From assembly GCF_050920415.1 (NCBI RefSeq), contig NZ_CP169309.1: a stretch of DNA of 64,000 bases; one strand, written 5' to 3'. This DNA is from Escherichia coli (lineage in GTDB: Bacteria > Pseudomonadota > Gammaproteobacteria > Enterobacterales > Enterobacteriaceae). The notes under the pieces were generated by a model. That model saw only the letters and a list, made by a program, of their open reading frames with translations. It had not been told where the DNA came from and made no database searches. The position numbers were made by a program, and so were the translations under genes. Below are positions 905-30,397 of this stretch, in pieces; position 1 is the stretch's first letter, and the number at the start of each line of letters is the position of its first letter.

Positions 905-1018
905 ACTATTCTTATCGCCCCTTCAAGAGCTAAGCCACTGTGAGTGCCGGAGATAAGCGCCGGATGGGGTAGAAACCCTTAAGCCTGTGATGCACAGACT
1001 TAAGGGTTTTCTTATTTC
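905..1018 (+). ncRNA. rydB: candidate small RNA in the ydiH-sufA intergenic region (position consistent with RydB); boundaries uncertain
   Basis: Structured non-coding stretch (inverted repeats gcttagc/gctaagc) ending in a strong intrinsic terminator; RydB is known to lie between ydiH and sufA; exact ends not determinable by eye. Confidence 0.3.
973..1018 (+). terminator. rho-independent terminator (hairpin aaacccttaag / cttaagggttt followed by a T-run)
   Basis: 11-bp perfect stem at 973-983 and 999-1009, then ttttcttatt. Confidence 0.6.
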
Positions 1019-1675: not shown

Positions 1676-3163
1676 ATGTCTCGTAATACTGAAGCAACTG
1701 ACGATGTCAAAACCTGGACCGGCGGCCCGCTGAATTATAAAGAAGGATTCTTCACCCAGTTAGCCACTGATGAGCTGGCAAAGGGGATAAACGAAGAGGT
1801 GGTGCGCGCAATATCGGCGAAGCGTAATGAGCCGGAGTGGATGCTGGAGTTTCGTCTCAAAGCTTATCGCGCATGGCTGGAGATGGAAGAGCCGCACTGG
1901 CTGAAAGCGCACTACGACAAGCTGAATTATCAGGAATACAGCTACTACTCAGCACCATCGTGCGGTAATTGTGACGACACTTGCGCGTCGGAACCCGGCG
2001 CGGTGCAGCAAACTGGCGCGAACTCCTTTTTAAGTAAAGAGGTGGAGGCGGCGTTTGAGCAGTTGGGCGTTCCCGTACGGGAAGGCAAAGAAGTGGCAGT
2101 GGATGCCATTTTCGACTCTGTTTCGGTTGCCACCACTTATCGTGAAAAACTGGCGGAGCAGGGAATTATTTTCTGTTCCTTTGGCGAGGCGATCCACGAT
2201 CACCCGGAACTGGTGCGGAAATATCTCGGCACCGTGGTGCCGGGGAATGACAACTTCTTTGCCGCGCTTAATGCGGCGGTGGCCTCTGACGGTACATTTA
2301 TTTATGTGCCTAAAGGCGTGCGCTGCCCGATGGAACTCTCCACCTATTTTCGCATTAACGCGGAAAAAACCGGACAGTTTGAGCGCACCATTCTGGTGGC
2401 CGACGAAGACAGCTACGTCAGCTACATTGAAGGCTGTTCCGCTCCGGTGCGTGACAGCTATCAGTTACACGCGGCGGTGGTGGAAGTCATCATCCATAAA
2501 AACGCCGAGGTGAAATATTCCACGGTACAAAACTGGTTCCCTGGCGATAACAACACCGGCGGTATTCTCAATTTCGTCACCAAGCGTGCTTTGTGCGAAG
2601 GCGAAAACAGCAAAATGTCATGGACGCAATCAGAAACCGGGTCAGCGATTACGTGGAAATATCCCAGCTGCATTTTGCGCGGCGATAACTCCATTGGTGA
2701 GTTTTACTCGGTGGCACTGACCAGCGGTCATCAGCAAGCGGATACCGGCACCAAGATGATCCACATCGGTAAAAACACCAAATCGACCATTATCTCGAAA
2801 GGGATCTCTGCCGGACACAGCCAGAACAGTTATCGCGGCTTAGTGAAAATCATGCCGACGGCAACCAATGCACGTAACTTCACCCAGTGCGACTCAATGC
2901 TGATAGGCGCTAATTGTGGGGCGCATACTTTCCCGTATGTCGAATGTCGCAATAACAGCGCGCAACTGGAGCACGAGGCAACGACATCACGTATTGGTGA
3001 AGATCAACTGTTTTACTGCCTGCAACGCGGGATCAGCGAAGAAGACGCCATCTCGATGATTGTTAACGGTTTCTGCAAAGACGTGTTCTCAGAACTGCCG
3101 CTGGAATTTGCCGTTGAAGCACAAAAACTCCTCGCCATCAGTCTTGAACACAGCGTCGGATAA
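1676..3163 (+). CDS. sufB: Fe-S cluster assembly scaffold SufB
   Basis: 495 aa from ATG at 1676 ([10 protein letters not shown]...); the 508-aa ORF from 1637 is an upstream extension. Confidence 0.93.
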
Positions 3164-3172
3164 GGAATAAAC

Positions 3173-3919
3173 ATGTTAAGTATTAAAGATTTACACGTCA
3201 GCGTGGAAGATAAAACTATCCTGCGCGGATTAAGCCTCGACGTTCGTCCCGGCGAAGTTCACGCCATTATGGGACCCAATGGTTCGGGGAAAAGTACCTT
3301 ATCGGCAACGCTTGCCGGACGCGAAGATTATGAAGTGACGGCTGGCACGGTTGAGTTTAAAGGCAAAGATTTGCTTGCGCTGTCGCCGGAAGAACGTGCA
3401 GGCGAAGGCATCTTTATGGCCTTCCAGTATCCGGTGGAAATACCCGGCGTCAGTAACCAGTTTTTCCTGCAAACGGCACTTAATGCGGTACGCAGCTATC
3501 GCGGCCAGGAAACGCTCGACCGCTTTGATTTTCAGGATTTGATGGAAGAGAAAATCGCTCTTCTGAAAATGCCGGAAGATTTATTAACGCGTTCGGTAAA
3601 CGTTGGTTTTTCCGGCGGCGAGAAAAAGCGCAACGATATTTTGCAAATGGCGGTGTTGGAACCGGAGTTATGCATTCTTGATGAGTCGGACTCCGGGCTG
3701 GATATTGACGCATTAAAAGTGGTTGCCGATGGCGTGAACTCGCTGCGTGACGGCAAGCGTTCATTCATCATTGTTACGCACTACCAACGCATTCTCGACT
3801 ACATCAAGCCTGATTACGTCCATGTGCTGTATCAGGGACGAATTGTGAAATCCGGCGATTTCACGTTGGTCAAACAACTGGAGGAGCAGGGTTATGGCTG
3901 GCTTACCGAACAGCAGTAA
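3173..3919 (+). CDS. sufC: Fe-S cluster assembly ATPase SufC
   Basis: 248 aa; Walker A GPNGSGKST and ABC signature LSGGE. Confidence 0.95.
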   Translation: MLSIKDLHVSVEDKTILRGLSLDVRPGEVHAIMGPNGSGKSTLSATLAGREDYEVTAGTVEFKGKDLLALSPEERAGEGIFMAFQYPVEIPGVSNQFFLQTALNAVRSYRGQETLDRFDFQDLMEEKIALLKMPEDLLTRSVNVGFSGGEKKRNDILQMAVLEPELCILDESDSGLDIDALKVVADGVNSLRDGKRSFIIVTHYQRILDYIKPDYVHVLYQGRIVKSGDFTLVKQLEEQGYGWLTEQQ

Positions 3920-5165
3920 CGCGCTGCAACAGTGGCATCACTTGTTTGAAGCCGAGGGTGCAAAACGCTCCCCGCAAGCACAGCAGCATTTACAACAATT
4001 GCTGCGTACCGGACTGCCGACACGTAAACATGAAAACTGGAAATATACGCCGCTGGAAGGGCTGACCAATAGCCAGTTTGTCAGTATTGCGGGGGAGATA
4101 TCCCCACAGCAGCGTGATGCCTTAGCGTTAACGTTAGACGCCGTGCGGCTGGTGTTTGTCGATGGACGTTACGTGCCCGCGCTGAGCGATGCAACTGAAG
4201 GCAGCGGATATGAAGTGAGCATTAACGATGACCGCCAGGGGTTACCCGACGCTATTCAGACGGAAGTGTTTCTGCATTTGACGGAAAGCCTGGCGCAAAG
4301 CGTGACGCATATCGCCGTGAAGCGCGGTCAACGACCGGCAAAGCCATTGCTGTTAATGCATATTACCCAGGGCGTGGCAGGTGAAGAGGTGAACACTGCC
4401 CATTACCGACATCATCTGGATCTGGCGGAAGGTGCCGAAGCGACGGTGATCGAACATTTTGTCAGCCTTAATGATGCTCGTCATTTCACCGGAGCGCGCT
4501 TTACCATCAATGTCGCAGCGAACGCCCACTTGCAGCATATCAAGCTGGCGTTTGAAAACCCGGTCAGTCACCACTTTGCCCATAACGATTTGTTGCTGGC
4601 TGACGATGCTACCGCATTTAGCCACAGTTTCCTGCTTGGTGGCGCAGTGTTACGACACAACACCAGTACGCAACTCAATGGCGAAAACAGCACGCTGCGG
4701 ATCAATAGTCTGGTGATGCCGGTGAAAAACGAGGTGTGTGATACCCGTACCTGGCTGGAACACAATAAAGGTTTTTGTAACAGCCGACAGTTGCACAAAA
4801 CTATCGTCAGCGATAAAGGCCGCGCGGTATTTAACGGTTTGATCAACGTCGCGCAGCACGCCATCAAAACGGATGGTCAGATGACCAACAATAATCTGCT
4901 GATGGGCAAACTGGCAGAAGTGGATACGAAACCGCAGCTGGAAATCTATGCAGATGATGTGAAATGCAGCCACGGCGCGACGGTGGGGCGTATTGATGAT
5001 GAACAGATGTTCTATCTGCGCTCGCGTGGGATCAATCAGCAGGATGCCCAGCAGATGATCATTTACGCCTTTGCTGCCGAACTGACGGAAGCACTGCGTG
5101 ATGAGGGGCTTAAACAGCAGGTGCTGGCCCGAATCGGTCAACGACTGCCAGGAGGTGCAAGATGA
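3894..5165 (+). CDS. sufD: Fe-S cluster assembly protein SufD
   Basis: 423 aa; start overlaps the sufC 3' end by 26 nt. Confidence 0.93.
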
Positions 5166-6959: not shown

Positions 6960-7964
6960 ATGAAACGCGCGTCTTTGCTTACACTCACGCTTATCGGCGC
7001 TTTTAGCGCCATTCAGGCTGCCTGGGCGGTTGATTATCCGCTACCACCAACCGGAAGCCGACTGGTTGGGCAAAATCAAACGTATACGGTGCAAGAAGGG
7101 GATAAAAACCTTCAGGCCATCGCCCGACGTTTTGATACTGCGGCAATGTTGATACTTGAAGCCAATAACACTATCGCCCCGGTGCCAAAACCTGGTACGA
7201 CGATAACTATTCCTTCGCAACTGTTATTGCCTGATGCGCCGCGTCAGGGGATTATCGTTAACCTTGCAGAGCTGCGCCTTTATTATTATCCGCCGGGAGA
7301 AAATATCGTGCAGGTCTATCCGATAGGTATTGGTTTGCAGGGGCTGGAAACGCCGGTGATGGAAACGCGTGTGGGACAGAAAATCCCTAATCCAACCTGG
7401 ACGCCAACGGCGGGCATTCGTCAGCGTTCGCTGGAGCGTGGCATTAAATTACCGCCCGTCGTTCCTGCCGGGCCAAATAACCCGCTAGGACGTTACGCAC
7501 TGCGCCTCGCGCATGGTAATGGCGAATACCTCATTCATGGCACCAGTGCGCCGGACAGCGTCGGTTTGCGCGTCAGTTCAGGGTGTATTCGCATGAATGC
7601 ACCGGATATTAAAGCCTTGTTCTCCAGCGTGCGGACGGGAACGCCGGTGAAAGTGATCAACGAACCGGTGAAATATTCTGTGGAGCCTAACGGGATGCGT
7701 TATGTGGAAGTGCATCGACCACTATCAGCAGAAGAACAGCAGAACGTTCAGACAATGCCTTACACACTGCCAGCAGGCTTCACGCAATTTAAAGATAATA
7801 AGGCTGTAGACCAGAAGTTAGTCGATAAAGCGTTGTATCGTCGGGCAGGGTATCCAGTTGCCGTGAGCACTGGCGCAACGCCTGTAGCCAGCAATGCGCC
7901 TTCAGTAGATTCAGCGCAGAATGGTGAACCAGAGCAAGGGAATATGTTACGCGCGACGCAGTAG
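6960..7964 (+). CDS. ldtE: L,D-transpeptidase LdtE (YnhG) with LysM and YkuD domains
   Basis: 334 aa; signal peptide; catalytic SSGCIRM motif. Confidence 0.9.
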
Positions 7965-18691: not shown

Positions 18692-18997
18692 TCAGGCGAG
18701 TTTTGCCTGATTGATTTGACTCAGTGGCTCATTGACATCGAAAACTTTGGCGACAACTTCCTCAACGCCGAGATTTTTCAGTCGGGCAGTATGTTTTTCC
18801 AGATAGGCAAGGGCGCTTTTTTCATCAGTGAAAAGGTAGATCCCACCGGCTTCGTGGTTCTTTTCACTTTCTGTCCATACCTTCCACAGAAAACCAGGTT
18901 CCTGATTAATTGACTCAGCAAGCGGTTTAAGCTGCTCAGCCATTGCGTCGCCAAATGGGCCATTAAAAGCAAAATGAAGTTGTAACAAAGTTGCCAT
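18692..18997 (-). CDS. ydhR: putative monooxygenase-like protein YdhR
   Basis: 101-aa ORF recognised as YdhR. Confidence 0.85.
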
Positions 18998-19104
18998 AGC
19001 GATTCTCCTTCTGATAACGCATACGAAGACAGTGTAAATCTTTTAACGTATTGGATACAGAGAAGAAACAGAGGGAAAAAGGAGAAGACCAGATTAAGAA
19101 AATC

Positions 19105-19181
19105 TGGTGCGTCCGAGTGGACTCGAACCACCGACCCCCACCATGTCAAGGTGGTGCTCTAACCAACTGAGCTACGGACGC
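19105..19181 (-). tRNA. valW: tRNA-Val (anticodon GAC), downstream copy
   Basis: 77-nt cloverleaf with 3' CCA; anticodon loop CTTGACATG; valV/valW naming assigned by transcription order only. Confidence 0.9.
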
Positions 19182-19185
19182 AGGA

Positions 19186-19262
19186 TGGTGCGTTCAATTG
19201 GACTCGAACCAACGACCCCCACCATGTCAAGGTGGTGCTCTAACCAACTGAGCTATGAACGC
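19186..19262 (-). tRNA. valV: tRNA-Val (anticodon GAC), upstream copy
   Basis: 77 nt; same anticodon; differs from the neighbour by compensatory changes in the acceptor and T stems. Confidence 0.9.
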
Positions 19263-27852: not shown

Positions 27853-27896
27853 TCCATTTCACTCCAGACCCTAACTTCAGCTCCTGCAAAATCGCA

Positions 27897-27912
27897 AGGT
27901 AAACGTTTGCCT
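27897..27912. promoter_or_regulatory. PUR box (aggtaaacgtttgcct) in the purR leader
   Basis: Near-perfect 16-bp palindrome with AAACGTTT core, about 45 bp upstream of the purR start codon. Confidence 0.5.
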
Positions 27913-28150
27913 TTACACACCTTACGCACAACAAAAATGTTGCGGTACGCCGGAAAAACGACACGGAGCGTCAGGAAGGGGTCAATGGCCAGTACGCAAA
28001 TAGTGTAAGCGTGGAATTTTGGCCGATCTTGACGAAAAGGGGAAGTGGTAAAAACACTTATCATTATAAATGACGGGAGATTTTTTCATCACAGTGTGTA
28101 AAAATGCGTAATATCACTTTTTGTGTGGTAATAAAAAAGGAGAAAACTTG

Positions 28151-28240
28151 ATGAGCACCGACCTTAAATTTTCACTGGTAACAACAATTATCGTCCTCGG
28201 TTTGATCGTGGCCGTGGGTTTGACTGCCGCGCTGCACTGA
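28151..28240 (+). CDS. ynhF: small hydrophobic protein YnhF (29 aa)
   Basis: ATG with SD aaggagaaaa; encodes MSTDLKFSLVTTIIVLGLIVAVGLTAALH, a single transmembrane segment; below the ORF-track size cutoff. Confidence 0.7.
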   Translation: MSTDLKFSLVTTIIVLGLIVAVGLTAALH

Positions 28241-28405
28241 TTTCCTCTCGAGGGAGCGCGTTCTCCCTCGCATCTCCTTCCTGTTTGTTAGCAAAATGGC
28301 AAAAGTGTTTTCTCTTTTTGTTATTTTCATTTTTTTGTGATTGCTGTCATGCTTTCGCCACTTTAATGAATATCGCGTAATGACGCGAAGAGGTGGAGAT
28401 AAGGC

Positions 28406-29575
28406 ATGAAAATTAACTATCCGTTGCTGGCGCTGGCGATTGGCGCGTTTGGTATCGGGACAACGGAGTTCTCGCCAATGGGCTTGTTGCCCGTCATTGC
28501 GCGCGGTGTGGATGTCTCGATTCCCGCTGCCGGAATGTTAATCAGTGCCTATGCAGTTGGCGTAATGGTGGGCGCGCCGCTGATGACGCTTCTACTTTCT
28601 CATCGTGCCCGCCGCAGTGCGTTGATTTTCCTGATGGCGATTTTCACGCTCGGCAACGTACTTTCCGCCATCGCGCCGGATTATATGACCCTGATGCTTT
28701 CACGCATTTTGACCAGCCTGAATCACGGAGCATTTTTTGGTTTGGGTTCAGTCGTGGCCGCAAGCGTGGTGCCAAAACATAAACAGGCCAGCGCAGTTGC
28801 CACTATGTTTATGGGGTTAACCCTGGCAAATATCGGTGGCGTGCCGGCGGCGACCTGGTTGGGTGAAACCATCGGCTGGCGGATGTCATTTCTGGCAACG
28901 GCGGGGCTGGGCGTGATTTCAATGGTAAGTCTGTTCTTCTCATTACCTAAAGGTGGCGCAGGGGCGCGACCTGAAGTGAAAAAAGAGCTGGCGGTATTAA
29001 TGCGTCCGCAGGTGCTGTCTGCATTGCTGACGACGGTGCTGGGAGCTGGCGCCATGTTTACCCTCTACACCTATATCTCTCCGGTACTGCAAAGTATTAC
29101 CCACGCAACACCGGTGTTCGTCACGGCAATGCTGGTGCTGATTGGTGTCGGGTTCTCTATTGGGAACTATCTCGGCGGCAAACTGGCAGATCGTTCAGTT
29201 AACGGCACGTTGAAAGGCTTTTTGTTGCTGCTGATGGTGATTATGCTGGCAATCCCGTTCCTGGCCCGCAATGAGTTTGGCGCAGCTATTAGCATGGTGG
29301 TGTGGGGAGCAGCAACCTTTGCGGTCGTACCGCCGTTACAGATGCGCGTGATGCGTGTCGCCAGTGAAGCGCCTGGTCTGTCTTCATCAGTCAATATTGG
29401 TGCCTTTAATCTAGGAAATGCGCTGGGAGCAGCTGCTGGTGGTGCGGTAATTTCCGCTGGGCTGGGATACAGTTTTGTGCCGGTGATGGGGGCGATTGTC
29501 GCGGGACTGGCATTATTGCTGGTGTTTATGTCAGCCAGAAAACAACCTGAGGCAGTTTGCGTTGCCAACAGCTAA
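28406..29575 (+). CDS. ydhP: MFS transporter YdhP
   Basis: 389 aa; 12-TMS MFS. Confidence 0.9.
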   Translation: MKINYPLLALAIGAFGIGTTEFSPMGLLPVIARGVDVSIPAAGMLISAYAVGVMVGAPLMTLLLSHRARRSALIFLMAIFTLGNVLSAIAPDYMTLMLSRILTSLNHGAFFGLGSVVAASVVPKHKQASAVATMFMGLTLANIGGVPAATWLGETIGWRMSFLATAGLGVISMVSLFFSLPKGGAGARPEVKKELAVLMRPQVLSALLTTVLGAGAMFTLYTYISPVLQSITHATPVFVTAMLVLIGVGFSIGNYLGGKLADRSVNGTLKGFLLLLMVIMLAIPFLARNEFGAAISMVVWGAATFAVVPPLQMRVMRVASEAPGLSSSVNIGAFNLGNALGAAAGGAVISAGLGYSFVPVMGAIVAGLALLLVFMSARKQPEAVCVANS

Positions 29576-29585
29576 TTAAACAAAA

Positions 29586-29609
29586 ACGCAGAAGGATAAC
29601 CTTCTGCGT
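29586..29609 (-). terminator. intrinsic terminator at the end of the sodB 3' UTR
   Basis: Stem acgcagaagg-ataa-ccttctgcgt followed, on the minus strand, by a U-run. Confidence 0.6.
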
Positions 29610-29638
29610 TACAGTTGCTGGCAACGTGCGATTTATCT

Positions 29639-29698
29639 TGCCGGATGCGGTGTTAACGCTTCATCCGAGTTGGCATGGTAAGCGAAGCGCATCAGGCA
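29639..29698. repeat. REP-like (repetitive extragenic palindrome) sequence
   Basis: gccggatgcggtgttaacgcttcatccg closely resembles the REP consensus GCCGGATGCGGCGTGAACGCCTTATCCGGC; followed by ...gcgcatcaggca. Confidence 0.4.
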
Positions 29699-29720
29699 AT
29701 GTTGCATTTGCCATCAGTTA

Positions 29721-30302
29721 TTATGCAGCGAGATTTTTTGCTACGAATTCCCAGTTCACCAGCGCCCAGAAGTGCTCCAGATAGCCAGGACGTGCATTGC
29801 GATAGTCGATGTAATAAGCGTGTTCCCAGACATCAACGGTCAGCAGTGGAGTCGCATCGGTGGTCAGCGGAGTACCCGCGTTAGAGGTTGAAACGATAGC
29901 CAGTTTGCCATCGCTGTTTTTCACCAGCCAGGTCCAGCCAGAACCAAAGTTTTTGATTGCTGCATCAGTAAACTGTGCTTTGAAATCGGCAAAGCTGCCA
30001 AAAGATGCGGCGATAGCTTCAGCGACTTTTCCAGTCGGTTCGCCACCCGCGTTCGGTGCCAGGCAGTTCCAGTAGAAAGTATGGTTCCAGACCTGAGCTG
30101 CGTTGTTGAATACGCCACCTTCAGAGCTGCGAATAATCTCTTCCAGTGATTTACCTTCAAACGCGGTACCTTTAATCAGGTTGTTCAGGTTAGTGACATA
30201 AGTCTGATGATGCTTGCCGTAGTGATACTCGATGGTTTCCGCAGAAATGTGCGGTGCCAGAGCATCTTTAGCATATGGTAGTGCAGGTAATTCGAATGAC
30301 AT
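29721..30302 (-). CDS. sodB: Fe superoxide dismutase
   Basis: 193 aa; recognised SodB sequence. Confidence 0.97.
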
Positions 30303-30357
30303 TGCTACTCTCCTTTATTATTAATTTGCATACGTACAATAGCCTTATTGTGCGTAT
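30303..30357 (-). promoter_or_regulatory. sodB 5' UTR (RyhB sRNA target region around the SD and start codon)
   Basis: Minus-strand leader atacgcacaataaggctattgtacgtatgcaaattaataataaaggagagtagcaATG matches the sodB leader as I recall it. Confidence 0.5.
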
Positions 30358-30397
30358 GGATAGGGTAGCAAATTAAAAGGTGAGACAAAAGATGAAC

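Follow-up and report, generated by a model that had tools for sequence, protein, structure and literature searches.

A decayed REP pair in the sodB 3' untranslated region of Escherichia coli, probably a near-neutral passenger

The sodB-ydhP interval and its transcript

The window analysed here is a 64-kb stretch of an Escherichia coli chromosome. Its sodB and ydhP genes converge, and the 351 bases around the sodB 3' untranslated region (3' UTR) are 100% identical to strain 7/2. Those 351 bases are present in 5,425 of 5,426 complete genomes, where the genes are annotated as sodB and ydhP. The features of the interval are collected in Table 1.

Table 1. Features of the sodB-ydhP interval, listed from sodB towards ydhP
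Feature	Position	Strand	Basis
sodB coding sequence (Fe superoxide dismutase, 193 aa)	29721..30302	-	ORF list; annotated sodB in 5,425 E. coli genomes
sodB stop codon TAA	29723-29721	-	
Predicted sodB 3' UTR, 139 nt, ending at the fifth T past the terminator hairpin	29582..29720	-	K-12 Term-seq, transferred
Stop-proximal insertion flank UAACUGAUGGCAAAUGCAACAUU, unique sequence, forms the closing stem of the large hairpin together with the distal flank	29698..29720	-	Folds; 264-kb search
Z2-type REP GCCTGATGCGCTTCGCTTACCATGCCAAC, same sense as the sodB mRNA, 25/29 to consensus	29669..29697	-	Consensus alignment, shuffles
Y-type REP TGCCGGATGCGGTGTTAACGCTTCATCCG, inverted relative to the sodB mRNA, 25/29 to consensus positions 1-29	29639..29667	+	Consensus alignment, nhmmer, shuffles
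Terminator-proximal insertion flank AGAUAAAUCGCACGUUGCCAGCAACUGU, unique sequence, other half of the closing stem	29611..29638	-	Folds; inverted repeat I1
sodB intrinsic terminator: hairpin 29610-29585 (11 bp, 4-nt loop) and T-rich tail	29575..29610	-	Terminator scan; conserved arms; Term-seq
ydhP (MFS transporter), convergent with sodB, stop 9 nt before the hairpin	28406..29575	+	ORF list; genome annotations

The terminator hairpin, read on the minus strand and followed by TTTGTTT, is the only terminator-like site downstream of sodB. It is separated from the sodB stop by 110 nt (29720-29611), which agrees with the figure of about 110 nt given in the preliminary description of this interval. 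The REP pair itself does not qualify as an intrinsic terminator; there is no T-run after it, and the definition fits the separate hairpin instead. Term-seq data for K-12 (PMC7815308, supplementary file 1) place a 3' end of sodB-strand RNA at 1736114 (+), with ...CCTTCTGCGTTTTT before the end and GTTTAATTAG after it. We checked this position in the K-12 sequence and it is the fifth T past the hairpin, 155 nt after the sodB stop. In two of the Term-seq condition lists the neighbouring ends are at 1734542 and 1737422, and neither of these lists has a 3' end between the sodB stop and 1736114. The hairpin and T-run are identical in K-12 and the window, so we infer that the equivalent end in the window strain is 29582. 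Since transcription ends at the downstream terminator, the REPs should lie inside the sodB mRNA. Mapping of sodB 3' ends had been proposed as a check on the element, and the mapped K-12 end falls downstream of it, at the terminator T-run, which leaves the proposal standing.

The opposite strand is a different matter. The terminator scan did not call the shared hairpin on the plus strand, the sense of ydhP, where there is no T-run; past the hairpin this strand reads TTACAG, and ydhP has no terminator of its own. Transcripts of ydhP may therefore run into the REP pair, antisense to sodB. Salmonella has no ydhP at this position, and ynhF/cydH comes after sodB there.

A few other observations belong to the same neighbourhood. 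A 14-nt inverted repeat, 86% complementary, flanks the terminator hairpin (29560-29573 and 29613-29626); one arm falls within the final codons of ydhP and the other within the insert's distal flank, and the repeat may be due to chance. The sodB 5' leader (30273-30377, minus strand) has a weak Rfam match to SodB_thermometer at 31.4 bits and E=0.0014, where the gathering score is 98. The other Rfam matches, at gathering level (27853-28243 (+), 917-977 (+) and 18981-19262), are to STnc550, rydB, antisense HPnc0260 and two tRNAs, and the STnc550 match overlaps the small cydH/ynhF ORF upstream of ydhP. A search of the literature found no small RNA derived from the sodB 3' UTR.

Identity and structure of the two REP units

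The consensus sequences used as queries for Y, Z1 and Z2 are those in the Methods of PMC11208160. In ungapped alignments, 29639-29667 (plus strand) agrees with the published Y consensus at 25 of 29 positions, and 29697-29669 (minus strand) agrees with the published Z2 consensus equally well, while Z1 reaches only noise level in the sodB-ydhP interval. When the window was shuffled 200 times with its dinucleotides preserved, no match exceeded 21/29, and the remainder of the real window reached 19/29 at best. Local alignment gives each unit a score of 38, compared with at most 26 elsewhere in the window and in the shuffles.

Profile models tell a similar story for the Y unit. We collected REPs from 200 kb of K-12, made up of four deliberately REP-rich 50-kb segments, and obtained 32 copies that are 90-100% identical to a consensus. 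HMMs were built from these. The Y HMM, made from 18 Y-type copies, finds 29639-29667 with nhmmer at E=0.0034, the sole match with E<1 across the 64 kb. The Z HMM mixes Z1 and Z2 and is too heterogeneous to score this Z2 copy; it gives the Z2 unit an E of 0.22, which is not significant. We instead assign this unit to Z2 from its match to the consensus and its positional orthology. Both units have 4 mismatches, and strict searching with the Y and Z2 consensus sequences at up to 3 mismatches therefore found nothing in the window. Rfam, at both permissive and gathering thresholds, has no family matching the sodB 3' UTR. At 86% identity to consensus, against 90-100% for the 32 K-12 copies, we take the two units to be the degenerate end of the REP family.

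The preliminary description had reported a degenerate REP-like unit between the stop codon and the terminator, quoting two strings that we locate at 29640-29667 (gccggatgcggtgttaacgcttcatccg) and 29687-29698 (gcgcatcaggca). The REP-like character, the degeneracy and the position all stand, and comparison with the consensus families, proposed there as a check, does find similarity (25/29 for each unit, E=0.0034 with the Y HMM). The count needs correcting; there are two units, and they are inverted. They lie tail to tail with 1 nt (29668) between the aligned parts. Judged by sequence similarity, the interval holds a Y + Z2 inverted pair, which is a BIME-2-type composition.

Each unit is an imperfect palindrome. 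The Y unit's arms, 13 nt each, show 77% complementarity (inverted repeat I5). The Z2 unit's own outer stem, read from the sequence, is weakened to 5/7 by mutations in the tail, and its palindrome has ACCATGC in place of ATCAGGC. There is also pairing between the two units, along 12 nt that are 92% complementary (inverted repeat I4), and it appears in the fold as well.

The 3' UTR folds at -51.6 kcal/mol against a shuffle mean of -34.2 (z = -5.5), and 0 of 200 shuffles are as stable. The two REPs pair with each other in the predicted fold, the terminator hairpin stays separate, and the unique flanks CUGAUGGCAAAUGCA and UGCACGUUGCCAG lengthen the stem to within 4-5 nt of the sodB stop. The opposite strand folds similarly. 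When the 3' UTRs of K-12 and E. albertii are folded the closing stem made by the flanks is kept and the interior is different. The flanks (29698-29720 and 29611-29638) are complementary to each other, which makes the whole 110-nt insert one large imperfect palindrome.

It is important to realize how the pair compares with known arrangements. BIME-2, in the Bachellier/Gilson classification as summarised in PMC3333891, is Y + Z2, inverted, with a short linker. The window pair has this composition, orientation and linker, is extragenic at the 3' end of a transcription unit and varies in copy number between strains. It is unlike BIME-2 in being a single unit and not a tandem array, and in having two degenerate units without GTAG/CTAC. 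The same summary describes BIME-1 as Y + Z1 units joined by L, a long conserved linker with an IHF site (PMC3333891). BIME-1, or RIB, is likewise a REP pair at a gene's 3' end, but here the second unit is Z2, Z1 is at noise, the linker is 1 nt and there is no IHF consensus. We searched 29576-29720 with the consensus WATCAANNNNTTR, allowing up to 2 mismatches, and had no match, although about 1 is expected by chance at 2 mismatches. IHF binding, which had been suggested as a generic role for such elements, is thus not borne out at this locus.

REPs are common, dispersed elements. The pair at sodB is intergenic, and the consensus sequences match 32 sites in the 200 kb of K-12. The 71-nt window element, used as a query against a 28-Gb database, matches at a median of 3 sites per genome with E<=0.01. 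The flanks of the pair have no other copies in the 264 kb searched, and on that scope they are not the conserved extra-REP motifs known from BIMEs. The sodB-ydhP interval is the only detectable REP site within the 64-kb window. At 7229-7255 there is a hairpin that opens with a perfect REP head, TGCCTGATGCG, and scores E=0.039 with the Z HMM; it lies inside a 334-aa ORF (6960-7964), and we set it aside as a coincidence on that ground.

Origin, alleles and decay of the insert

Alignment with strains that lack the element had been proposed as a check in the preliminary description, and related species offer such a comparison. E. fergusonii, S. enterica, S. bongori, two Citrobacter (Citrobacter werkmanii and Citrobacter sp. 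FP75), Enterobacter cloacae and Pseudocitrobacter all have the sodB stop, 5-10 nt and then the orthologous terminator hairpin (ACGCAGAAGG-loop-CCTTCTGCGT). No REP scoring 28 or more follows sodB in these seven relatives. E. fergusonii, for example, reads TAA, TTGTGAT and AACGCAGAAGG... after sodB. Judged by these relatives, the terminator came directly after the stop in the ancestor, and the 110 nt were inserted between the two.

A Z2 + Y pair resembling that of the short E. coli allele is present in E. albertii, where the Z2 unit is more canonical. Its presence there and its absence from E. fergusonii might look like a conflict with the phylogeny, and we considered this. We dropped the objection since E. 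albertii is closer to E. coli at sodB (92.8% nucleotide identity) than E. fergusonii is (88.5%), so one insertion after the E. fergusonii split suffices. The borders of the insert carry a short direct repeat, AACTGAT / AACTGT. A target-site duplication with short terminal inverted repeats was considered as a reading of it and rejected; the ACTGAT of E. albertii belongs to the inverted repeat and there is no clean duplication.

Within E. coli the interval exists in three allelic forms. The window form, with a 145-bp intergenic interval and a Z2 + Y pair, is found in 3,746 of the 5,425 genomes (about 69%). A long form of 234 bp has four alternating REPs (1,345 genomes, about 25%). The K-12 form is 161 bp and has a near-perfect Z2 (GCCTGAAGCGCTACGCTTATCAGGCCTAC) plus a hybrid inverted unit; its count of about 350 genomes (about 6%) is the remainder after the other two alleles. 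The K-12 Z2 lies at the matching position and is one mismatch from consensus, and the hybrid unit looks as if a deletion had joined the second REP of the 234-bp allele to the fourth. Flanks and terminator are identical in all three alleles, and the differences are confined to the REP block. REP number at the locus therefore varies between strains (two, a hybrid, or four), the window having one Y + Z2 unit and no long array. Both the K-12 and the long alleles have near-perfect REPs at the positions of the window units. In strain MS20657 (NZ_CP082077.1) ydhP is annotated as frameshifted, and the Z2 unit has a 4-base change, CTTAC to CGCGC.

A REP pair at sodB is already known in K-12. Table 2 of PMC10100675 lists REPv128ab against sodB, and we take the label from that entry; the NC_000913.3 record used here has no repeat_region features, even after yaaX, where a REP is expected. 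The window pair shares with K-12 REPv128a,b the locus, the flanks and the terminator, and aligns with it end to end outside the REP cores. It differs in length, 145 bp against 161 bp, and in having different and more degenerate units where K-12 has the near-perfect Z2 and the hybrid.

The decay of the window units extends to the motifs that matter for mobility. The GTAG/CTAC tetranucleotide at the foot is absent from both units. The Z2 tail has GCCAAC instead of GCCTAC, so that the GTAG motif reads GTTG, and the Y unit has no GCCTAC tail at all. The first two units of the K-12 and long alleles keep GTAG. E. coli TnpA-REP requires GTAG and tolerates no change in it (PMC8266576).

A second mobile system can be followed at the same place. 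IS621 is an IS110-family element with a bridge-RNA recombinase. Strain K99B (NZ_CM135133.1) carries IS621 (positions 2698-4110 of the stretch compared) in the sodB-proximal REP of a long-type allele. The insertion point is exactly ATCAGGCCT^AC, equivalent to about 29669-29675 of the window, and the junctions are ...ATCAGGCCT/TGTAT... and ...CAGTATCT/ACGCGG..., with the CT core at both. The natural target of IS621 is ATCAGGCCTAC with a CT core, located within REPs (PMC11208160). The long-type allele keeps the exact target; in the window ATCAGGCCTAC is absent and the site reads ACCATGCCAAC, matching at 8 of 11 positions. Since both GTAG motifs and the exact IS621 target have been lost, we infer that the window units are relics, probably no longer substrates for TnpA-REP and dead as mobile or targetable elements.

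Divergence from E. albertii gives a measure of constraint. The window insert is identical at 85 of 111 positions (77%), compared with 155/194 (80%) at sodB third codon positions and 31/35 in the terminator region. Taken by segment, identity is 72-73% in the REPs and 69% in the distal flank, and the stop-proximal flank matches at 22 of 23 positions. Across six sequences, a two-sided (compensatory) change is seen in 1 of 45 predicted pairs, and several changes break pairs. The pattern in the REP block fits near-neutral drift, and the conservation of the stop-proximal flank could reflect some constraint.

Passenger or functional element

We believe this is probably a decayed E. coli REP pair that rides as a near-neutral passenger in the sodB 3' UTR, where it would form a hairpin of roughly 100 nt. 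The REP pair, flanked by some 25 nt of unique sequence at either end, would have been inserted between the sodB stop and the pre-existing terminator after the E. fergusonii split and before the split of E. coli and E. albertii, judging by sodB similarity. It would be transcribed as part of the sodB mRNA because transcription stops at the downstream terminator. In the RNA the REPs are expected to pair and the flanks to extend the stem, placing the large hairpin just upstream of an undisturbed terminator hairpin. The pair would work as a selfish or neutral passenger. Its sole likely effect would be passive, a second structured obstacle to 3'-to-5' exonucleases behind a strong terminator hairpin, and the change in sodB mRNA decay would be small at most.

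Absence from relatives, copy-number polymorphism and near-synonymous divergence together argue against an important function, and suggest that the REP pair has little or none. Four things count on the other side. The element has been retained since E. coli and E. albertii separated, three different alleles keep the closing stem, the stop-proximal flank is conserved at 22 of 23 positions, and gyrase cleavage is enriched in the Y + Z2 class of elements (PMC6379681).

The strongest of the functional readings, though we consider it unlikely, is that the REP hairpin blocks PNPase and RNase II once the terminator stem has been breached, giving a longer sodB mRNA half-life and more SodB. The element does lie within the mRNA as we reconstruct it, its predicted structure is very stable and the K-12 and E. 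albertii folds retain its closing stem. Other genes have documented REP stabilisers, according to references given by PMC12306157 and PMC10100675. The pair resembles the malE-malF, gdhA and hisJ-type stabilisers cited in PMC12306157 in being a REP stem-loop in a transcript 3' of a coding sequence. Unlike them, it is not the 3'-terminal structure, the sodB 3' end being formed by the strong terminator downstream. That 11-bp GC-rich hairpin already guards the 3' end, and it is the only 3' structure in relatives that lack REPs. The REPs diverge at roughly the synonymous rate, with loss of pairs, and their copy number varies freely. In a fluoride/ATP-depletion study REP-stabilised transcripts went up, but sodB, listed with REPv128ab, was in a down-regulated cluster (PMC10100675).

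Somewhat less likely, in our opinion, is that the whole 110-nt insert, with its paired unique flanks around the REP pair, is a selected RNA structure and not debris. This reading draws on the retention of the insert since the E. albertii split, on a closing stem that is made in three alleles through partly different sequences, and on the start of that stem 4-5 nt after the stop. The sodB mRNA is among the cell's most abundant mRNAs. If this reading is correct, the insert would tune sodB translation termination or 3' decay in Escherichia, unlike in E. fergusonii and Salmonella.

We give a slimmer chance to a role at the level of DNA, in which DNA gyrase would bind at the Y + Z2 site, and positive supercoils accumulating between the convergent genes sodB and ydhP would be relieved or insulated there. 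The composition is right and so is the arrangement of the genes, and a subset of BIME-2 has an excess of gyrase cleavage sites, with a preference for Y units (PMC6379681). However, it is only a subset of BIME-2 that is cleaved, and the window has a single degenerate unit. The sodB locus is mentioned neither in the text of PMC6379681 nor in the supplementary material searched. E. fergusonii, Citrobacter and Enterobacter share the convergent arrangement and do without the element.

It is quite improbable that the structure acts on translation by stalling the terminating ribosome near the stop and lowering SodB, the mechanism of Liang, Rudd and Deutscher. The predicted closing stem begins 4-5 nt past the stop, and the stop-proximal flank is conserved at 22 of 23 positions in E. 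albertii. The REPs that regulate translation are those within 15 nt of the upstream stop (Liang, Rudd and Deutscher 2015, as summarised in PMC12306157). Between the end of the stop codon at 29721 and the start of the Z2 unit at 29697 there are 23 nt, so the pair lies beyond that distance, and the outer stem that does come close is broken by bulges and is much weaker than a REP stem.

Finally, we reject with near certainty the idea that this is no REP at all, just a chance palindrome or part of the terminator: the empty search at up to 3 mismatches, the lack of an Rfam family and the non-significant mixed Z HMM speak for it, but both units match at 25/29, far above 200 shuffles, canonical REPs occupy the matching positions in other strains and IS621 targeted one of them, the label REPv128ab is published, and the mapped 3' end belongs to another hairpin, which is the true terminator.

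It has been recognised for some 40 years that E. coli genes can carry REPs at their 3' ends, and the sodB pair, real but ordinary, matters little in itself. What it does provide is a natural experiment: one gene and one terminator with 0, 2 or 4 REPs, or with 4 REPs and IS621, across close relatives and strains. The locus could be used for a clean test of whether a REP upstream of a strong terminator affects a highly expressed mRNA.
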